DNA of 10,294 nt from Gemmatimonadota bacterium (GTDB taxonomy: Bacteria > Gemmatimonadota > Gemmatimonadetes > Palauibacterales > Palauibacteraceae), in assembly GCA_039588275.1 (NCBI GenBank), contig JBDHAC010000095.1:1-10294 (forward strand). Direction: 5' to 3'. The notes under the pieces are model-generated. The model saw only the letters and a list, made by a program, of their open reading frames with translations, searched no databases and was not told where the DNA came from. Position numbers and translations under genes: made by a program. Shown here piece by piece: positions 898-10,294 of this stretch (position 1 is its first letter; each line of letters starts with the position of its first letter).

Positions 898-2316
<1,419 letters not shown>

Positions 2317-2608: not shown

Positions 2609-3682
2609 CTACGCGGAGAGTGGTAACTCGATCTCCACGCGCGTGCCGCCATCCGGTTCGCTCTCGATGTGGACCCTGCCTCCGAGGATGGCGGCTCGCT
2701 CCTGCATACCGAGGATCCCGAGTCCCCTTCCGCCGAGTATGGGGTGGTCTTTCATCGAGAACCCGTCGCCATCATCTTCGACGGTCGCGCGGACCGCGCC
2801 GTCCAATGCCGAGAGGCGGATTTGCACAGTCGTCGCGTGCGCGTGTCTGACGATATTGGTCACGGCTTCCTGGATGATTCGGTAGAGCGAGAGCTTGCCC
2901 TCGACGGAGAGCAAGTCGTCAATGTTGTCCGCCTGCAGGTCGGCCTCCATGTCGGACTCCCCGAACACGTTTCGCAGGTGGGCTCGGATCGCGGCCACGA
3001 CGCCGGCTTCCTCCAGCGCCGGCGGCCGTAGACCTCGCAAGATCCTGCGAACGCCCTCCGACGTCTCGTGCAGCTCGCGGTGGATCTCCGTCAGCAGTTC
3101 CTCGCGGCGATCCTCCGTGGGAGCGCGTCGCGCCATCTGGAGCCGCAACAGGATCGAAGCGAGCCGCTGCGCCGTATCGTCGTGCAGATCTCGGGCGATG
3201 CGCTGTCGCTCCTCCTCCGCCCCCTGCAGCACACCGGCGCCGAACTCCCGCAATCGCTTGCGGGACGTGATGTCGTGCACGGTAGCGACGATGAACACGC
3301 CGCGGGCGGTGCGCAGCGGGCTCAACCCGACTTCCACGGGCAGGTGGCTGCCGTCCTTTCGGCAGGCGATGAGCTCCATCCCGATCCCCATCGGCCGACG
3401 CGACGGCGACTCCGCGTATTGACCTCGGTGCGCGCGGTGTTGCGTGCGCATCGCGTCCGGAACGAGGACCTCGACCGAACGGCCTACAAGCTCGTCACGG
3501 GCGTAGCCGAACATGCGCTCGACCTCTCTGTTCAGGTCGAGGATGACTCCCGCTGCATCGACAATCAGGCAGGCGTCAGGAACGGCCTCGAACAGGGACC
3601 GGAATCCCTCACCGCCGAACGGGACCTCGGGCCCGATCGTCTGCTGTGCGTCGCCTGTCGGGGACTCGGTCTTGGACGCCAT
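2609..3682 (-). CDS. Soluble PAS-domain sensor histidine kinase (PAS + HisKA_3 + HATPase_c; NarX/UhpB/NreB-type core)
   Basis: PAS (FEAVPDA, MFGYARDELVGRSVEVLVP, RKDGSHLPVEVGLSP, VHDITSRK); H-box EERQRIARDLHDDTAQ; N-box YRIIQEAVTNIVRHA; EDDGDGF and GLGILGMQERA G-boxes; GGTRVEIELP. No TM segment. ATG at 3682 preferred over the track start at 3736. Confidence 0.95.
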   Translation of the reverse strand: MASKTESPTGDAQQTIGPEVPFGGEGFRSLFEAVPDACLIVDAAGVILDLNREVERMFGYARDELVGRSVEVLVPDAMRTQHRAHRGQYAESPSRRPMGIGMELIACRKDGSHLPVEVGLSPLRTARGVFIVATVHDITSRKRLREFGAGVLQGAEEERQRIARDLHDDTAQRLASILLRLQMARRAPTEDRREELLTEIHRELHETSEGVRRILRGLRPPALEEAGVVAAIRAHLRNVFGESDMEADLQADNIDDLLSVEGKLSLYRIIQEAVTNIVRHAHATTVQIRLSALDGAVRATVEDDGDGFSMKDHPILGGRGLGILGMQERAAILGGRVHIESEPDGGTRVEIELPLSA

Positions 3683-3804
3683 CGAGCCTGTACACGGGCA
3701 GCCTGACAAAAACGATACGGACCCCGGACAGCGCACCCGCGCGCCCGGGGTCGTCGAGTTAGAAGAACGTCGGGAGGGTGGGACGAACTGTCAAACCGAG
3801 CGGA

Positions 3805-4728
3805 CTACGTCGTCGATGCCGCGCCGGCCCCAGCCGCGCTCGGACTCGGTCGGAGATCCACCCCGAACGGCTTGACCGTCAGCACGGGACACGGGGTCCG
3901 TCGGAGCACGCCCTCGGCGACGCTGCCGAGCAAGACCCGCTCGAGTCCGGAATAACCGTGACTCGGCAGAACGATCAGGTCGTGGCCACCCCGCTCCGCG
4001 AAGTCCGTCACCTCGGTCGTGGTCCGCCCCACCTTGACGTGCGTCCCGACCTCGTGAGTCGCACGCAGTGGCTCCGCCAGAGCTTCCAACCGATCTCCCG
4101 CGTCCCGGCGGACTGCCGTCGTCTCGAGAGCGGCCGAGAACGGAACGTAGAAGTCGGGGTAGGTCGGCACCTCGACGACGTGCAGCAGGTCGAGCGCCGC
4201 ACCGAACGTCCCGGCAAGCTCGTGAGCATAGCCGACCGCCAAGGCGGTCTGCTTGGAAAAGTCCACCGGTATGAGTATGCGCTTCACCTCTACCTCGGTG
4301 GCGGGCTCTTTCTTCTCCCGAACGATCAACACCGGGCACCGAGCCTCTCGCAGGACCTCCTCGGCCACGCTTCCCAACAGCAGCCGTCGGATCCCTCGCC
4401 TGCCGTGTGACCCGATCACGATGAGATCGACCTCTCCTGCGTCCGCGTAGTCGAGGATGGCGGGAGCCGCCGCGATCGCGCGCGTGACGTGGTGAGTGAC
4501 GCGCCCCCCTTTTGGCTCGCGCGCCGTCGCCTCCAGAGCTTCCTTCGCCGATTCCTCGCCCGGGAACGGCTCGATCGCCTCGATCGCCGATGTCGCGTGC
4601 AAAACGAGCACGTGCAACAGCTCAAGATCAGCGTCATGCAGTTCGGCGAGGCGGATCGCGTGCGGCAATGCACCCTGGGCACACTCCGAGAAGTCCGTCG
4701 GGAACAGGATTCTGTGTAGGTCGAGCAT
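3805..4728 (-). CDS. Universal stress protein with two tandem USP domains
   Basis: From ATG 4728 (AGGAG RBS upstream on the minus strand), 307 aa: RILFPTDFSECA...LLHV...DLIVIGSHGRRGIRRLLLGSVAEEVLREARCPVLIV, then RILIPVDFS...LLHVV...DLIVLPSHGYSGLERVLLGSVAEGVLRRTPCPVLTVK. Confidence 0.96.
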   Translation of the reverse strand: MLDLHRILFPTDFSECAQGALPHAIRLAELHDADLELLHVLVLHATSAIEAIEPFPGEESAKEALEATAREPKGGRVTHHVTRAIAAAPAILDYADAGEVDLIVIGSHGRRGIRRLLLGSVAEEVLREARCPVLIVREKKEPATEVEVKRILIPVDFSKQTALAVGYAHELAGTFGAALDLLHVVEVPTYPDFYVPFSAALETTAVRRDAGDRLEALAEPLRATHEVGTHVKVGRTTTEVTDFAERGGHDLIVLPSHGYSGLERVLLGSVAEGVLRRTPCPVLTVKPFGVDLRPSPSAAGAGAASTT

Positions 4729-4821
4729 CGGTCTCTCCTGATTCCTGTCGGCGGCGAGGCCGCGAGAGGGCCGCCGCGTCCCGAGCAGGCCCGTATATGC
4801 GGCCCCGGCACTTCCCACCGC

Positions 4822-4837
4822 CGCACCTCGCGTACCC
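4822..4837 (-). promoter_or_regulatory. Candidate sigma54 -24/-12 promoter for the USP gene
   Basis: Minus strand reads GGGTACG-CGAG-GTGCG (GG at 4836-4835, GC at 4824-4823; GG-N10-GC), a good match to TGGCACG-N4-TTGC; about 95 bp upstream of the USP ATG. Confidence 0.5.
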
Positions 4838-4863
4838 GCTTTCACCGGGCGCGGCACCAGCCG

Positions 4864-4890
4864 TAAGTGTATTATTGAAAAGCGTTTGAA
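4864..4890. promoter_or_regulatory. AT-rich tract, possible IHF/DNA-bending site
   Basis: TAAGTGTATTATTGAAAAGCGTTTGAA in a very GC-rich background. TAAGTGTATTATT matches the IHF consensus YAANNNNTTGATW with 2 mismatches and lies between the candidate sigma54 promoter and the palindrome. Confidence 0.4.
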
Positions 4891-4921
4891 TGGATGCGTA
4901 GCGGACTCGCGTTCACCTGTG

Positions 4922-4938
4922 CGGGACAGAACGCCCCG
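4922..4938. promoter_or_regulatory. Palindromic regulator-binding (enhancer-like) site, copy 2
   Basis: CGGGAC-AGAAC-GCCCCG in the divergent USP/DUF5335 intergenic region. Confidence 0.55.
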
Positions 4939-5059
4939 ACCGCGGGCGTGGTCCGGTGTGAGGCCGCGACGCTCCGGAGGTGTCCCTCCTTGGAGGTACG
5001 GTTCGTGGCTGAGAGGAGCGGCCCACCGGACCGGCACGCCAACCGGAAAGACGCCGGAC

Positions 5060-5392
5060 ATGGTGAGGACGATCCCGAGACGGGAGTGGACCCAAGCACT
5101 CGACGGGTTCACGCAACGCAATGCCGGGCGGCGCACCTCGCTCGAGGTGGACGCACCCGGAATCGGGACTCGTTCACAGCAGCGGCATTTCCAGCTCCAG
5201 GGCGTGGTGTACGATCCGCGAGACGAGCGCATCGAGATCATGCTCGGTGGGTTCGAGGGGGTGGGCCCGCATCTCACGCATACCCTGGGAGATGTCGAGG
5301 CGGTCGATCTCGTGACCGATTCGACCGGCCGTGACACGGTGCTTCGCATCGCCCAGGCCACTGGCCAGACCCTCCTGCGCATCGAGCTCTAG
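5060..5392 (+). CDS. DUF5335-like small protein
   Basis: 110 aa from ATG 5060: MVRTIPRREWTQALDGFTQRNAGRRTSLEV...LQGVVYDPRDERIEIMLG...HLTHTL...GQTLLRIEL. The IP..EW...LD.F, L.G..YD and HLTH pattern is recognised from memory as DUF5335-like. Confidence 0.8.
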   Translation: MVRTIPRREWTQALDGFTQRNAGRRTSLEVDAPGIGTRSQQRHFQLQGVVYDPRDERIEIMLGGFEGVGPHLTHTLGDVEAVDLVTDSTGRDTVLRIAQATGQTLLRIEL

Positions 5393-5423
5393 CACGCAAC
5401 AGGTCCAACCAGGATATGCGATC

Positions 5424-5975
5424 ATGGTCACGCTGCACGATATCATGTCTCTCGAAGTCGAGACGGTGACTCCACACACCACGTTACGTGAGGTCGCCGA
5501 GTTGTTCGCCGGCCTTCACATCAGCGGAGCTCCAGTGGTGTCTGGCGATCAGGTTGTCGGCGTGTTGTCGGCGACGGATCTCCTCGGGTTCGACGCCGAG
5601 TCCCGGGGCGTTCCCACCCGCAAGGAATCGCGCACCGGCGAGGCATGGGAGGATGGCGATGAGTGGCACTCGGACGAGGAGGCGCCCGCCTCCTTCTACG
5701 CCGACTTGTGGGCGAACGCGGGCGCCGACCTCACCGCGCGCCTCGAGGTGACGGACGCCCCTGAGTGGAACGTGCTGGAGGAGCACACGGCCGAGGAGTT
5801 GATGACTCGCAGCGTTTGCGCGCTGCCATCCGATACGCCGGTCAGGGAAGCGGCCGAGTACATGCTTCGAGCGAGCGTGCACCGCATCCTGGTCATGGAC
5901 GACGAGGAGCTGGTGGGGGTAGTGACCACGACCGACATCGTGAAGGCCGTCGCGCAATACGGTCTCGGGGGCTGA
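5424..5975 (+). CDS. CBS-domain (Bateman module) protein with an acidic insert
   Basis: 183 aa from ATG 5424 (AGGA upstream): DIMSLEVETVTPHTTLREVAELF..ISGAPVV..VVGVLSATDLL and ELMTRSVCAL..TPVREAAEYM...VHRILVMDDEELVGVVTTTDIVKAVA. Confidence 0.93.
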   Translation: MVTLHDIMSLEVETVTPHTTLREVAELFAGLHISGAPVVSGDQVVGVLSATDLLGFDAESRGVPTRKESRTGEAWEDGDEWHSDEEAPASFYADLWANAGADLTARLEVTDAPEWNVLEEHTAEELMTRSVCALPSDTPVREAAEYMLRASVHRILVMDDEELVGVVTTTDIVKAVAQYGLGG

Positions 5976-5987
5976 ATCCGCGCCGCC

Positions 5988-6040
5988 TGGTCGCGCGCGG
6001 CCACGGCCATCGGAGGCGACCCCGGGGCGCCGCGGCGCCC
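5988..6040 (+). other. Two GC-rich inverted repeats after the CBS stop (possible RNA hairpins or atypical terminator)
   Basis: TGGTCGCGCGCGGCCA (5988-6003, near-palindrome) and the perfect 16-bp palindrome GGGCGCCGCGGCGCCC (6025-6040); no U-tract follows. Confidence 0.3.
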
Positions 6041-6082
6041 GTGCCGGTATCGACCAGAACGCCCCTCCACGCCCTTCGCGAT

Positions 6083-6099
6083 CCCGACAGAATGTCCCA
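6083..6099. promoter_or_regulatory. Palindromic regulator-binding (enhancer-like) site, copy 3, with a weaker partner site at 6050-6066
   Basis: CCCGAC-AGAAT-GTCCCA (reverse strand TGGGAC-ATTCT-GTCGGG). TCGACC-AGAAC-GCCCCT lies 33 bp upstream and shares CAGAACGCCCC with copy 2. Confidence 0.55.
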
Positions 6100-6186
6100 C
6101 CCACCGCGCCGCGGAGCTTGCGTCGCGGAACCCACAATTCCGCGCCGCTAGCCGCGATCTAGGCGGTCCACAGGAGCTCGGACCCG

Positions 6187-6202
6187 AGGTTCAAACCGTG
6201 CA
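6187..6202 (+). promoter_or_regulatory. Candidate sigma54 -24/-12 promoter for the ackA-like operon
   Basis: AGGTTCA-AACC-GTGCA (GG 6188-6189, GC 6200-6201; GG-N10-GC), about 80 bp upstream of the GTG start and 97 bp downstream of the palindrome centre. Confidence 0.4.
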
Positions 6203-6283
6203 CACCCCCGACGCGGAGCGGCCACGCGCCGGGGCTCGGACCCGACGAGCTCGTGGCCGGACGATGCCCGGAAGGGGGTTGGG

Positions 6284-7399
6284 GTGCGCATTGCGGTCCT
6301 GAACATGGGTACCGCGAGCGTGAAGACGGCGCTCGTCGACATCGACTCGAACGGGGTCGACGTGCTGGCGCGTCACCGCGTCGAGATCGGCGCCCGCGAG
6401 CCGGCTCAGGCCGCCAGCGAGGCGCTGGATCGGCTCGGAGCGGGACGGCACGACATCGATGCGGCCAGCCACCGTATCATCCATGGCGGAACACGGTACA
6501 CGGCGCCCGTCGTGCTCGATTCGACGCTGGAGGACGCGCTCCGAAACACCGCCCCGCTCGCCCACCTCCTGAACGCGGCTGCGCTGGCGGGAGTGAACGT
6601 AGCACGCCGCTTCTTCCCGTCGGTCCCGCACGTGGCGGTCTTCGATACGGCGTTTCATGCCTGTCGGCCGCTCGAGTCCCTGTACTACGCCCTGCCGCGC
6701 GAGCTGACTGATTCGCTCGCGTTGTACCGGTACGGCTTTCAGGGCATCGCCCACGAGGCGCTGGTCGAATCGCTCGCCCGGTCTTCTGGGGAAGCGCGCG
6801 AAGGCGTCTGGGCCCTGACCCTGCAGCTAGGCGCCGTGTGCTCGGCTTGTGCCGTTCAGAACGGCCGGTCGGTGGAGACGTCCAACGGCTTCTCGCCCCT
6901 CGAAGGGCTGGTGACGACGACGGGCTGCGGCTCGCTCGGTCCGGGCGTGTTGATCCACCTGTGCGCCCAGGGGTATCCACACGAGTGGATCGAGGAGCGA
7001 CTCACCCGGCGCGCAGGGCTCCTGGGGCTCGCGGGGTGCGAGTCGGTTCCCGAGCTTCTGGAACGTGAGGCGAGGGGCGAGGAGCGGGCCGCCCTGTCGC
7101 TGCGAGTGTTCATTCGCAGGATCGTCCTGACCGCCGGCGCGTTCTTCACCGTGCTGGACGGTCGGGGTGCCCTCGTGTTTGGCGGCGGCATCGGATCGGG
7201 CTCCGCGGAGATCCGCCTCCGAGTGGCCGAGGGCCTCTCGAGCTGGAACGTGCGATTGGATGGGGCCCGGAACGAGGCGGGACCGGGAGGGCTGATCTCG
7301 ACCGAGGGAAGCCGCCCGGTGTACGCGTTCGAGACCGACGAAGAGCGGGCGATCGCCCGAAGCGCGGCCCGGATCCTGGAGCTCAGTCCCGTCCACTGA
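6284..7399 (+). CDS. Acetate/propionate kinase-family (ASKHA) protein with a degenerate active site
   Basis: LNMGTASVK, HRIIHGG, VAVFDTAFH, YALP, RYGFQGIAH, SVETSNGFSPLEGL, ALVFGGGIG and TDEERAIAR align with AckA motifs, but many catalytic residues are substituted (see findings), so the ackA symbol is withheld. Confidence 0.9.
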   Translation: MRIAVLNMGTASVKTALVDIDSNGVDVLARHRVEIGAREPAQAASEALDRLGAGRHDIDAASHRIIHGGTRYTAPVVLDSTLEDALRNTAPLAHLLNAAALAGVNVARRFFPSVPHVAVFDTAFHACRPLESLYYALPRELTDSLALYRYGFQGIAHEALVESLARSSGEAREGVWALTLQLGAVCSACAVQNGRSVETSNGFSPLEGLVTTTGCGSLGPGVLIHLCAQGYPHEWIEERLTRRAGLLGLAGCESVPELLEREARGEERAALSLRVFIRRIVLTAGAFFTVLDGRGALVFGGGIGSGSAEIRLRVAEGLSSWNVRLDGARNEAGPGGLISTEGSRPVYAFETDEERAIARSAARILELSPVH

Positions 7400-7442
7400 T
7401 CCGAGCGAGAGGTGCCGGGTCCGCAGGAGAGGCGAGTCGAGG

Positions 7443-8267
7443 ATGCGAGCAGGTCGCGAATTCCAGCATATCGCACGCCCGCGCGGGCTCCATCGGGCGG
7501 CCCCGCTGACCCGCCTCTTGCTCCTCGTAGCGATTCCCCAGCTCCCCTCCGAGGGAGCACCGCCAGCCTACGCCCAGGAGACCCCCGCCGAGATCGTGGA
7601 TCGGGTGGACAGGCTGCTGCGTGGCGAGTCCAGCCGAGGCACGGTGAGCATGCGGATCGTCACCGAGCACTGGACCCGGAGCCTGGATATGAGCATATGG
7701 TCGCTCGGCACGGACCACGCGCTCATTCGAATCCTCTCACCCCAGAAGGACGCGGGTCTCGCGACGCTGAAGGCGGGGAACGAGATCTGGAACTACCTGC
7801 CGCGGGTCGACCGGACGATCAAGGTGCCCACCTCGATGATGGGAGCCTCATGGATGGGCTCTCACTTCACCAACGATGACCTCGTCAAGGAGCACCGTCT
7901 GATCGACGACTACGACATCGAGATCGCGTTCGAAGGAGCGCGGGACGGGAGCGAAGTGTGGGAATTCGATCTGACCCCGAAGGCTGAAGCGGCCGTCATC
8001 TGGGATCGGATCGTGTACCTCGTTCGAAAGGCGGACATGATGCCCGTGTGGGCGAGGTTCTACGACGAACGGGACGCGCTCATCCGCACCATCACCTGGT
8101 CCGACTACAAGACGATGGGCGGGCGTCTCGTGCCCGCCCTCATGACCATCGAGCCGGCGGACAAGCCGGACGAGAGTACCGCGGTGCTATACGTCGAGCT
8201 CGAGTTCGACGTAGACGTGGAGCGCACGTTCTTCTCGCTTCGGACCCTGCGGTCCCGCGAGCGATGA
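7443..8267 (+). CDS. LolA-like 'outer membrane lipoprotein-sorting protein' family, secreted/periplasmic
   Basis: Hydrophobic stretch then AYA|Q signal peptidase I-like site; LIRILSPQKDAG..TLK, EIWNYLPRVDRTIKVPTSMMGASWMGSHFTNDDLVKE and FFSLRTLR motifs typical of LolA-like proteins encoded with MacB/FtsX permeases. Exact start uncertain. Confidence 0.88.
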   Translation: MRAGREFQHIARPRGLHRAAPLTRLLLLVAIPQLPSEGAPPAYAQETPAEIVDRVDRLLRGESSRGTVSMRIVTEHWTRSLDMSIWSLGTDHALIRILSPQKDAGLATLKAGNEIWNYLPRVDRTIKVPTSMMGASWMGSHFTNDDLVKEHRLIDDYDIEIAFEGARDGSEVWEFDLTPKAEAAVIWDRIVYLVRKADMMPVWARFYDERDALIRTITWSDYKTMGGRLVPALMTIEPADKPDESTAVLYVELEFDVDVERTFFSLRTLRSRER

Positions 8268-8289
8268 CCCGCGATCCCAGCGACGCGGC

Positions 8290-9558
8290 ATGACCTACCT
8301 CTTCCGCCGACCCTGGTGGCGAGTCGGGTGGCGAAACCTGGGCCGCAACCGGCGACGCACCCTGTTCACCGCCAGCGGTCTGGCCATCGGGTACTGCACC
8401 GTCGTGGTCATGACCGGTCTCGGTCGTGGCATGGTCGCCGAGATGGTCGGCAACGGAACCGGGATCCTTTCCGGCCAGCTCCAGCTCCACGGACCGGATT
8501 ACCTGCCCGAGCGAAGCATGTACGAGACCATCGGCGGGCGTGAAGGCGCCGATGTGGAGGCCCTCGTGGCTCGCGTTGAGGCGGATCCGTCGATCGCCGC
8601 AGCCGGCCCTCGCGTCTACGGCGGCGGGTTGGTCAGCTCCGGCGACGCGACGGTCGCGGCCAGCCTGATCGGGATCGACCCCGCCCGCGAGCCCCATGTC
8701 TCGCGTATCCCCGGGACCGTGTACCAGGGCGCGCAACCGACGGTAGGGACGAACGAGCTGTTGATCGGGCGCGAAATGGCGACCCAACTCGATGTCGGAC
8801 CCGGAGACGAGATCGTCCTGGTGGCGCCGGCCTCGGACGGATCGTTGGGGAACGACCTGTTTCGCGTATCGGGCGTGTTCTCCACCGGTCTGACCGAGCT
8901 CGACGGAGCGGTGGCGCTCCTGCCGCTCGACGCTCTCCAGCAACTCATCGCCCTGCCCGCCGACCGCGTTCACGAGATCGCCGCGCGCGTCGAAGATCCG
9001 TGGGCGGCGGCGGCGGCGGCGGAGCGAATCGATGCCTGGCTCGGCACCGCCGCCGACGGTGCGAGGGCGACCGCATGGACCGAGCTCCAGCCCGAGATGG
9101 TGTTCTACGCGCGGCTGTTCGAATCCATGGAGTGGATCCTCCTGGTGATCATCTTCGTGATGGCGGTGTTCGGGGTCGCGAACACCATGCTCACCGGCAC
9201 CTATGAGCGCAGGCGAGAGTTCGCGGTCATTTTGGCGTTGGGAGCCGGGCCGGGGCTCATCCTCCGCTCCGTGCTGGCCGAGGCCATCGCCCTCGGCGTC
9301 CTGAGCCTCGGGGCCGGCGCGCTCATCACGGGCCCCCTGCTCTTCTGGTGGCACGAGGCGCCACCGGACATGAGCTGGCTGTACGGCGGTTTCACGATGG
9401 CTGGCGGGCTCGTCCGGCCGGTGCTCCGCGTCGAGTACCCGCCGGAGATGCTCTGGATGGCCGCCGTCGCGTTGTTCGTCACCGCCGTGCTGGCCGCGAT
9501 CTACCCCGCTTACCGCGGCGCGCGCACTCCTCCGGCCGACACGCTCGCGGGGCGATGA
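8290..9558 (+). CDS. ABC transporter permease, MacB/FtsX (LolE-like) family
   Basis: WRNLGRNRRRTLFT N-terminus, one TM, large periplasmic domain (GIDP..E, LLIGREMATQLDVGPGDEIVL, VSGVFSTG..ELD), then GVANTMLTGTYERRREFAVILALGA and three more TMs ending AIYPAYRGARTPPADTL. Confidence 0.95.
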   Translation: MTYLFRRPWWRVGWRNLGRNRRRTLFTASGLAIGYCTVVVMTGLGRGMVAEMVGNGTGILSGQLQLHGPDYLPERSMYETIGGREGADVEALVARVEADPSIAAAGPRVYGGGLVSSGDATVAASLIGIDPAREPHVSRIPGTVYQGAQPTVGTNELLIGREMATQLDVGPGDEIVLVAPASDGSLGNDLFRVSGVFSTGLTELDGAVALLPLDALQQLIALPADRVHEIAARVEDPWAAAAAAERIDAWLGTAADGARATAWTELQPEMVFYARLFESMEWILLVIIFVMAVFGVANTMLTGTYERRREFAVILALGAGPGLILRSVLAEAIALGVLSLGAGALITGPLLFWWHEAPPDMSWLYGGFTMAGGLVRPVLRVEYPPEMLWMAAVALFVTAVLAAIYPAYRGARTPPADTLAGR

Positions 9559-10294
9559 GCCGCCTGCCGATCCTGGTCCGGCTGGCGGTGCGGAATCTGC
9601 GCCGGAACGTGCGCCGCAGTCTGCTGACGGGCGCGGCCATGGTGGTAGGCGTGGGGCTTCTCGCCATGTCCCGCGCCTTCGCGGAGGGTGGCCACGAGGA
9701 CTGGATCGAGTCCGGCGTTCGTCTGGGCACCGGACACATCGCGCTACAGGCCCCCGCGTTCCATGCCCGCCGCACGATCGAGCACCGTCTCGATGCGGAG
9801 GTGCTGGCGGGCGCCCTGGGCGCCCTGGACGAGTCGTCGCTAGCGGATGACGCGCTAGCAGTGGCCGTGCGCCTCGAGCTACGGGGGCTGGCCAGCAGCG
9901 CGGCCGCGGCCGTGCCGGTGATGGTGAACGGAGTCGACGCCGACGTCGAGCGGAGCTTCGCGGAGCTCGACACCGCGCTCGAGCAGGGTCGTTACCTGGA
10001 GCAGGGTGATCGGCTGCATGCGTACATCGGGGTGAAGCTCGCGGAGCGTCTGAATCTCGAGCTCGGCTCCCGCCTGGTCCTGACGGCCCAGGACGCATCG
10101 GGCGGGATCGCCGCGCAGCTCGTCCGTGTGGTCGGCACCTTCCGCACCGGTCTACCGGAGATGGACGAGCGATTCGTGCAGGTTCCTCTCGAGACCGCTC
10201 GCGCGTGGGTCGGAACCGAGGGAGCGGCGACGTCGGTAGCCGTGCTCCTCGCCTCCAGCCGTCGGGTACCAGTTGTGAAGCGCGCCCTGGTGGA
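9555..10294 (+). CDS. Second MacB/FtsX (LolE-like) ABC permease, N-terminal part (runs off the right edge)
   Basis: Hand translation from ATG 9555 (ATGA overlap with the previous stop): MSRLPILVRLAVRNLRRNVRRSLLTGAAMVVGVGLLAMSRAFAEGGHEDWIESGVRLGTGHIALQ...VNGVD..GRYL...IGVKLAERLNLELGSRLVL...VVGTFRTGLPEMDERFVQVPL, open to the edge. Confidence 0.93.
   Translation, partial: MSRLPILVRLAVRNLRRNVRRSLLTGAAMVVGVGLLAMSRAFAEGGHEDWIESGVRLGTGHIALQAPAFHARRTIEHRLDAEVLAGALGALDESSLADDALAVAVRLELRGLASSAAAAVPVMVNGVDADVERSFAELDTALEQGRYLEQGDRLHAYIGVKLAERLNLELGSRLVLTAQDASGGIAAQLVRVVGTFRTGLPEMDERFVQVPLETARAWVGTEGAATSVAVLLASSRRVPVVKRALV

Follow-up and report, generated by a model that had tools for sequence, protein, structure and literature searches.

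The DNA analysed here, referred to as the window, is a stretch of 10,294 nucleotides from a Gemmatimonadota bacterium (genome G000). It carries a gene of the acetate kinase (AckA) family, the query gene, together with the following neighbours:

898..2316, minus strand: NtrC-family sigma-54 response regulator; the best NCBIfam match is AtoC, below its cut-off.
2609..5975: genes for a PAS-HisKA_3 kinase, tandem Usp proteins, DUF5335 and CBS, assigned by profile matches.
6284..7399, plus strand: AckA-family gene with a GTG start, 371 aa, with eroded catalytic and adenine-pocket residues (ORF, Pfam, alignment, AlphaFold2/Foldseek).
7443..10292, plus strand: LolA-like and MacB/FtsX-type permease genes, in the same direction, found only in this genus.

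The reading frame at 6284-7399 encodes 371 residues without stops, and the protein matched the Acetate_kinase profile (PF00871) with 240 bits against a cut-off of 22. An AlphaFold2 model reached a pLDDT of 93.9, and its top five Foldseek matches, all acetate kinases, had TM scores of 0.87-0.90. The predicted model has the two-domain ASKHA fold, with a TM of up to 0.90 to solved AckAs. A preliminary description of this DNA had called the frame intact and proposed a superposition on AckA; the ORF and the Pfam score agree with the former, and the Foldseek matches bear on the latter. With TIGR00016 (NCBIfam), the protein scored 217.6 against a cut-off of 293.4, and intact sister proteins were likewise below it (P0053, 269; P0014, 291.5). 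The scores with two butyrate kinase profiles, 39.6 against 289 and 50.3 against 222, were both under the cut-offs. A search for longer forms of the query protein gave, among the 120 matches listed, only distant fusions with 31-42% identity.

We mapped residues by a phmmer alignment to M. thermophila AckA (1g99), whose numbering is used for family positions; the offset is +27 from query residue 56 to about 227. D283/F284/R285 were assigned from a multiple alignment with the sisters, as the pairwise alignment has a one-residue gap there. The following features, all on the plus strand, were located:

6302..7342: span of retained residues, with N7 (6302), K14 (6323), H63/R64 (6470-6475), D121 (6644) and E353 (7340-7342); it also includes H67, F152, P205 and G302/G304.
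6563..6571: H94-L95-L96 (P121 to H, H123 to L); H123 is lost in all the clusters of the clade described below, and H or R stands at 121 in 9/15.
6740..6742: Q153 (H180 to Q), codon CAG, loss of a catalytic histidine, from the alignment (role: PMC11717252, available text).
6824..6838: QLGAV (H208/N211/G212 to Q181/A184/V185), the PHOSPHATE2 loop; Q208 and A211 are subfamily-wide, G212 to V is clade-specific.
6884..6886: N201 (M228 to N), from the alignment.
6923..6925: G214 (R241 to G), codon GGC, loss of the catalytic arginine (role: PMC6461089 and PMC11717252, available text).
7043..7051: S254-V255-P256 (D283/F284/R285), loss of the adenine-pocket loop (role: PMC4390882, available text).

Together with D246 to G219 and GIGENS to GIGSGS, these are the substitutions that the preliminary description had listed, and all of them are in the sequence. 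The alignment also bears out the residues given there as retained, N7, K14, R91 (R64), D148 (D121) and E384 (E353), of which N7 and E384 are metal-binding. The acyl pocket V93/L122/F179/P232, as defined in the available text of PMC5517563, corresponds to I66, L95, F152 and P205. The nucleotide pocket is incomplete: G210 and G331-G333 are kept, and G212, D283 and R285 are replaced by V, S and P. The protein thus resembles in fold the acetate/propionate kinases (AckA, TdcD, PduW; 1G99/1TUY, M. smegmatis 4IJN; PF00871), with 30-37% identity, and has N7, K14, R91, D148, E384, F179, P232 and G331 in common with them. Unlike them, it lacks H123, H180, G212, M228, R241, D283 and R285, and its N-terminal part is about 27 residues shorter. 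The other genomes of the genus, G001 and G002, show the same substitutions, which rules out an assembly error. Across 91 columns conserved to at least 95% in 134 sisters, the query alters 14 and the sisters 0.9 on average and at most five. The alterations touch 8 of 23 active-site columns and 6 of the 68 others (Fisher p = 0.006), in line with the earlier view that changes concentrate on functional positions; the test is partly circular, since the sites were chosen from the literature and in part from the very finding under test.

As judged from the alignments, the substitutions form two layers, a subfamily-wide signature and clade-specific losses. The direct parent of the query is an AckA subfamily marked by Q208 (QLGxGC), which shares with it Q208, the absence of N211, an altered GIGENS motif and about 50% identity. 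Outside the clade, Q208, H123, H180, G212, M228 and R241 were each found in 134/134 sisters; unlike the query, the sisters thus keep H123, H180 and R241, and are presumably active. When the query cluster was omitted, Q208 occurred in 118 of the 119 nearest homologues, N211 in none and E334-N335 in five, and 106 kept H123, H180 and R241 together. Moreover, N211A lowers the activity of MtAckA only about 6-fold (PMC4390882, available text). Sisters that keep the triad share Q208, the missing N211 and the altered GIGENS, and we therefore regard these as a signature of the subfamily and not as dismantling. The preliminary description had counted all three as parts of a dismantled site; this is not supported, given the 134 intact-triad sisters for Q208, the counts in the nearest homologues for A211 and GIGENS, and the mild effect of N211A.

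The names of records that carry genes of the Q208 type include Woeseiaceae, Myxococcota, Nitrospira and Dehalococcoidia, and the public annotation of these genes is just acetate kinase. The subfamily (L036-L111) is wide, lies mostly beside phosphoketolase and varies at N211 and E334/N335. Among the loci listed, phosphoketolase was present in the fetched flanks of 63/76 intact-triad genome loci and beside 20/27 of the nearest sister loci. The pairing of phosphoketolase with AckA turns acetyl phosphate into ATP, and the sisters are therefore likely to be ordinary enzymes. Within the subfamily, P0126, P0441 and P0442 represent another AckA derivative, which is independent of that of the query and eroded further; it is kept as a three-protein cluster, with H180 changed to Q, altered HGG and LAPLHN motifs and a shortened R241 region. 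The family matches also include, within P0298-P0416, many acetate kinase fusions of 740-820 aa with PduL-type (PF06130) and cyclic-nucleotide-binding (PF00027) domains, and in P0399 an acetate kinase fused to transaldolase.

The clade of the query comprises 15 protein clusters, which scored 607-653 bits in a profile search against 524 for the next match; these clusters were also the rows from which the profile was built. With 17 trait columns removed, the clade is one branch (SH-aLRT 99; quick IQ-TREE, 42 rows). Its members go down to about 52% identity and are all near full length. H123 is lost in 15/15 clusters (L in 14, V in one), R241 in 10 (G, A, H, Q), H180 in seven (Q, Y), M228 in seven (N, S, T), G212 in nine (V, T, S) and D283/R285 in nine. 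Whether the substitutions recur in close homologues had been raised as a check, and the clade-specific ones do. H180 and R241 are both kept in 4/15 clusters, which may still be active to judge from these residues, and neither is kept in 6/15. P0012 is one of the clusters with both, whereas the G015 protein has lost H123, H180 and R241 and still has G212 and D283/R285. In the tree, R241, H180 and M228 were each lost in more than one sub-branch.

These patterns bear on the idea of a new chemistry, namely that the protein is still a phosphotransferase which uses the kept ASKHA core (N7, K14, D148, E384 and the G331 loop) with another acceptor or donor. N7, G9, H90, R91, H94, D148, F179, G210, P232, G331, G333 and E384 are identical in 15/15 clusters, as are the residues of the retained span except K14 (K or R), and the losses concern mainly carboxylate, transition-state and adenine contacts. 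Position 123 is not free but restricted to L or V, its codon having changed synonymously, and in the nine clusters without G212 and D283/R285 position 121 has become H or R. All this would suit a new reaction. However, positions 180, 228, 241 and 212 vary widely, no new catalytic residue is shared, and the 16 columns conserved specifically in the clade are mostly hydrophobic. That the losses differ in residue between branches fits relaxed sites, not one new catalytic set. Of the 68 conserved non-site columns, 52, including 10/10 polar ones, are invariant in the clade too, so that the retention of N7, R91, D148 and E384 is no proof of function. On balance, we consider a new chemistry unlikely, yet worth keeping in view. 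R149 and E198 are also invariant in the clade; they correspond to R178 and D227 of Salmonella AckA, for which a dimer-interface pocket is described (PMC3475010, available text), and the equivalent of M230 is lost in the query.

Selection was assessed by the Nei-Gojobori method in pairs among three and two related genomes. Within the genus, dN/dS was 0.093 (G000-G001), 0.093 (G000-G002) and 0.106 (G001-G002) at dS of 0.40-0.65, with a 95% bootstrap of 0.06-0.13 for the value of 0.093, and both domains were equally constrained; for G015-G029 it was 0.151. Seven neighbouring genes gave 0.03-0.26 in the same within-genus pairs, comparable to the query gene, and the intact sister pair G025-G036 gave 0.199, above the value of the query gene. 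The codons for L96, Q153, H94, S254 and G306 show synonymous changes, with the new residue kept. None of the five whole copies has a stop or a frameshift. Purifying selection and intact frames together rule out a decaying pseudogene, and the preliminary description, which had favoured selection over random decay and proposed dN/dS below 1 as the test, was right on this point. The low dN/dS is a sign of selection on the protein, without telling for what.

Among 114 genomes of the family, AckA matched at E<=1e-40 in 12 and was absent from 102. The 12 comprise six with the eroded form, two with intact Q208 sisters, one with a broken sister and three with distant matches. The eroded form is present in all genomes of genera g1 (that of the query), g14 and g3 (n=6, one family), with the G004 copy split over two contigs, and none of the six has a second AckA copy. 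In a sample of 401 genomes of the phylum, including the unpublished G211, scores above 312 bits were confined to G000 and G015. A metagenome scan gave no new clade members, as all 80 listed loci keep H123, H180 and R241; the locus scans reached 33 and 9 of 64 parts. The broken copy (L030:6565-7215, G010:C95) is a Q208 sister beside PEP synthase with a frameshift and an in-frame stop, reflecting either real decay or an assembly error. Its state, and the absence of AckA from the 102 genomes, suggest that members of this family can lose an ackA that they do not need. The narrow distribution, the broken copy and the piecemeal loss of functional sites could also mean that the query gene is a relic with no useful function, which persists since it is expressed from an operon and a misfolded product would be costly. 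Against this stand dN/dS values of 0.09-0.15 at the divergence given above, the five undamaged copies, retention in 6/6 genomes of three genera even where PEP synthase is off the locus, and the near-full length of all 15 clusters across the divergence of the clade. A relic is improbable on these grounds.

The preliminary description had taken R241 and H180 to be needed for efficient catalysis, and published mutants bear this out. With R241A, the kcat of MtAckA fell to 0.4%, and P. gingivalis AckA retained 3.9% of its activity (PMC6461089, available text). In Treponema AckA, H180A reduced kcat to 2% and raised the Km for acetyl phosphate 60-fold; R241A left 0.2%, also with a raised Km (PMC11717252, available text). 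R285, which interacts with D283, belongs to the lining of the adenine pocket (PMC4390882, available text). With H180, R241, G212, D283 and R285 all lost, normal acetate kinase activity is unlikely, as extrapolated from single mutants. Substitutions of H123 and H208 were reportedly mild in a study of AckA histidines. The conserved protein lacks H180 and R241 and likely no longer works as an acetate kinase.

A separate canonical ackA, proposed as a further check, was not found in G000, where the query is the only PF00871 match (genome 85.8% complete). Phosphoketolase was found in 0/15 related genomes, which had been picked for an acetokinase-family match, and a PTA_PTB-family match in 14/15 genomes searched. 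G000 carries a Pta-like gene with a DLSRG motif (G000:C8:8906-9823), scoring 269 against a cut-off of 311, as well as an AMP-forming acetyl-CoA synthetase. Being the only AckA found in a genome with a Pta-like gene, and having a largely kept acyl pocket, the protein might be a slow acetate kinase, of which a small fraction of activity trims the acetyl-phosphate pool made by the Pta-like enzyme; the Treponema single mutants R241A and H180A retain turnover rates of about 9 and 95 per second (PMC11717252, available text). We find this rather improbable, because H180 and R241 are lost together and with G212, D283 and R285, because most family genomes have no AckA match despite the frequency of PTA_PTB-family matches, and because repeated loss of R241 is not expected under selection for activity.

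PEP synthase lies directly upstream of the gene in G015, G029 and G004, with a 4-nt overlap in G015 and G029. It also flanks the intact sisters G025, G036, L042 and L053 and the broken G010 copy. The locus in the genus of the query has no PEP synthase; G000 and G001 encode one at another site, which shares 63-64% identity with that of G015, and a search of G002 (91% complete) found none. A universal partnership with PEP synthase is ruled out, since this enzyme adjoins only 3 of the 76 intact-triad loci listed, against the 63 with phosphoketolase, and is missing from the genus locus. A stand-in for the PEP synthase regulatory protein (PF03618) was also rejected: this protein follows no pattern, being present in G015 and G004 and not in G000, G002 or G025. 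The adjacency in three genomes, and the AckA-to-enzyme I phosphoryl transfer cited in the available text of PMC3475010 and PMC4072538, favour one form of new chemistry, in which phosphoryl groups would be exchanged, independently of ATP, with the phospho-histidine of PEP synthase or enzyme I. An AckA rewired in this way from ATP to a protein phosphodonor would have dropped its ATP and transition-state residues but still have the metal site, E384 and the acyl pocket; it could link PEP to acetyl phosphate or to the response regulator of the cluster. However, PEP synthase also stands beside intact sisters, is off the locus in the genus and was not found in G002, and we hold such rewiring to be very improbable. 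A complex prediction for the G015-type protein with the histidine domain of PEP synthase scored 0.00 in a run whose controls did not fold, and weighs on neither side.

Two elements were found upstream of the query gene:

6086..6096: 11-bp inverted repeat GACA-N3-TGTC, a candidate activator site, identical in G000, G001, G002, G015, G029 and G004.
6188..6202, plus strand: GG-N9-TGCA, a candidate sigma-54 -24/-12 element, a weak match to the full consensus (GG and TGCA only).

The inverted repeat has a single exact copy in G000, and a weaker similar site lies at about 6052-6065. It stands about 200 bp before the gene in g1; in G015 and G004, PEP synthase follows it at about 180 bp, and in G029 at a somewhat greater distance. 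It was not found in 4/4 intact-sister loci, some of them short, nor in L036-L062. The GG-N9-TGCA element lies 101-102 bp from the repeat in 6/6 clade genomes, which are related, and in 0/4 intact-sister loci, with a background of 2.2e-4 per base in G000. The alignment puts the upstream elements of g1 and of g14/g3 in different columns. A scan of 4700-7500 for sigma-70 promoters and terminators found none, and rpoN was present in 4/4 genomes tested. The two elements likely constitute a sigma-54 promoter with its activator site, and we infer that the NtrC-type regulator (898-2316) is a candidate reader of the repeat. The usual sigma-54 contact motif of such regulators is GAFTGA; this one has GSFTGA and is 95-96% identical across the genus. 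In the simplest history, PEP synthase was lost in g1 from between the element and the gene, and the gene stayed, the direction of this change being the presumed one. More GACA-N3-TGTC-like sites occur at 3782-3792 and 2537-2547 of the window, at L022:3964 and at L026:3225, upstream of the PAS kinase and response regulator genes, which hints that a single regulator has several sites within the cluster.

We favour, with about even confidence, a non-catalytic ligand-binding or regulatory role, that is, a regulated pseudo-kinase. The gene descends from the Q208 subfamily, whose members are mostly beside phosphoketolase, and loss of the partner that produces acetyl phosphate may have relaxed the catalytic sites. 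A hydrophobic residue was fixed at H123 in the clade, with R241, H180, M228, G212 and D283/R285 then lost piecemeal. The remaining half-pocket would bind a small acid or a phosphorylated metabolite and pass its state to a partner; the metal site N7/D148/E384, R91, H90/H94, F179, P232 and the dimer-interface residues may support both ligand binding and an open-close domain motion. Expression would be driven by the NtrC-type regulator of the cluster and sigma-54. Purifying selection and the upstream element are both kept in the genus where PEP synthase is absent from the locus. Since H180 and R241 contribute to the binding of acetyl phosphate or acetate as well, ligands should be bound more weakly. 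The idea of an acetyl-phosphate sensor is weakened by the raised Km of H180A and R241A (PMC11717252, available text), and that of a nucleotide sensor, for the query gene, by the loss of G212, D283 and R285.

A remodelled nucleotide pocket with N211 replaced is also known from the PPi-dependent acetate kinase of Entamoeba histolytica (EhACK, 4H0O; PMC5517563, available text). There, Q323-M324 block the adenosine pocket and an extra Gly is present, whereas the query keeps G331-I332 (G302-I303) and instead loses catalytic residues. A PPi-type enzyme is ruled out by this Gly-Ile pair and the absence of Gln-Met. The query shows two traits of a pseudoenzyme, as conserved catalytic residues are missing from an intact fold in a gene under purifying selection. 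Pseudoenzymes are a known kind, and the eroded AckA clade is a variant within it. In the literature searched, with subscription journals largely outside its coverage, we found no description of a pseudo-acetate kinase or of this clade, and nothing on Gemmatimonadota together with PEP synthase. The clade is small and its role predicted, which limits the weight of the finding. Because acetate kinases are annotated by similarity, the clade genes are labelled 'acetate kinase', and such labels would speak for acetate fermentation by uncultured bacteria probably unable to perform it through the query protein. The clade also offers a natural gradation, with intact sisters at one end, single losses in between and the query at the other, a test set for the change from enzyme to pseudoenzyme and for a non-catalytic role of the AckA fold or of the proposed dimer-interface pocket.

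The kinase, Usp and CBS genes are also near the gene in G001, G002, G015, G029 and G004, with no match to DUF5335 in G004. Within the fetched stretches, the Usp, CBS, PAS kinase and NtrC-type regulator genes are common to the clade genomes. In G004 (L026:4975-11152), a nitrous oxide reductase cluster (nosZ, nosD and ABC genes) lies between the CBS gene and PEP synthase. G000:C84 (MscS, aconitase) appears to precede the contig of the window and G000:C13 to continue it; the cluster goes on with genes for an ABC ATPase, a HAD acid phosphatase, Usp, RtcB and archease (G000:C13:1-9600; L020:14391-19467; L022:11002-15331).
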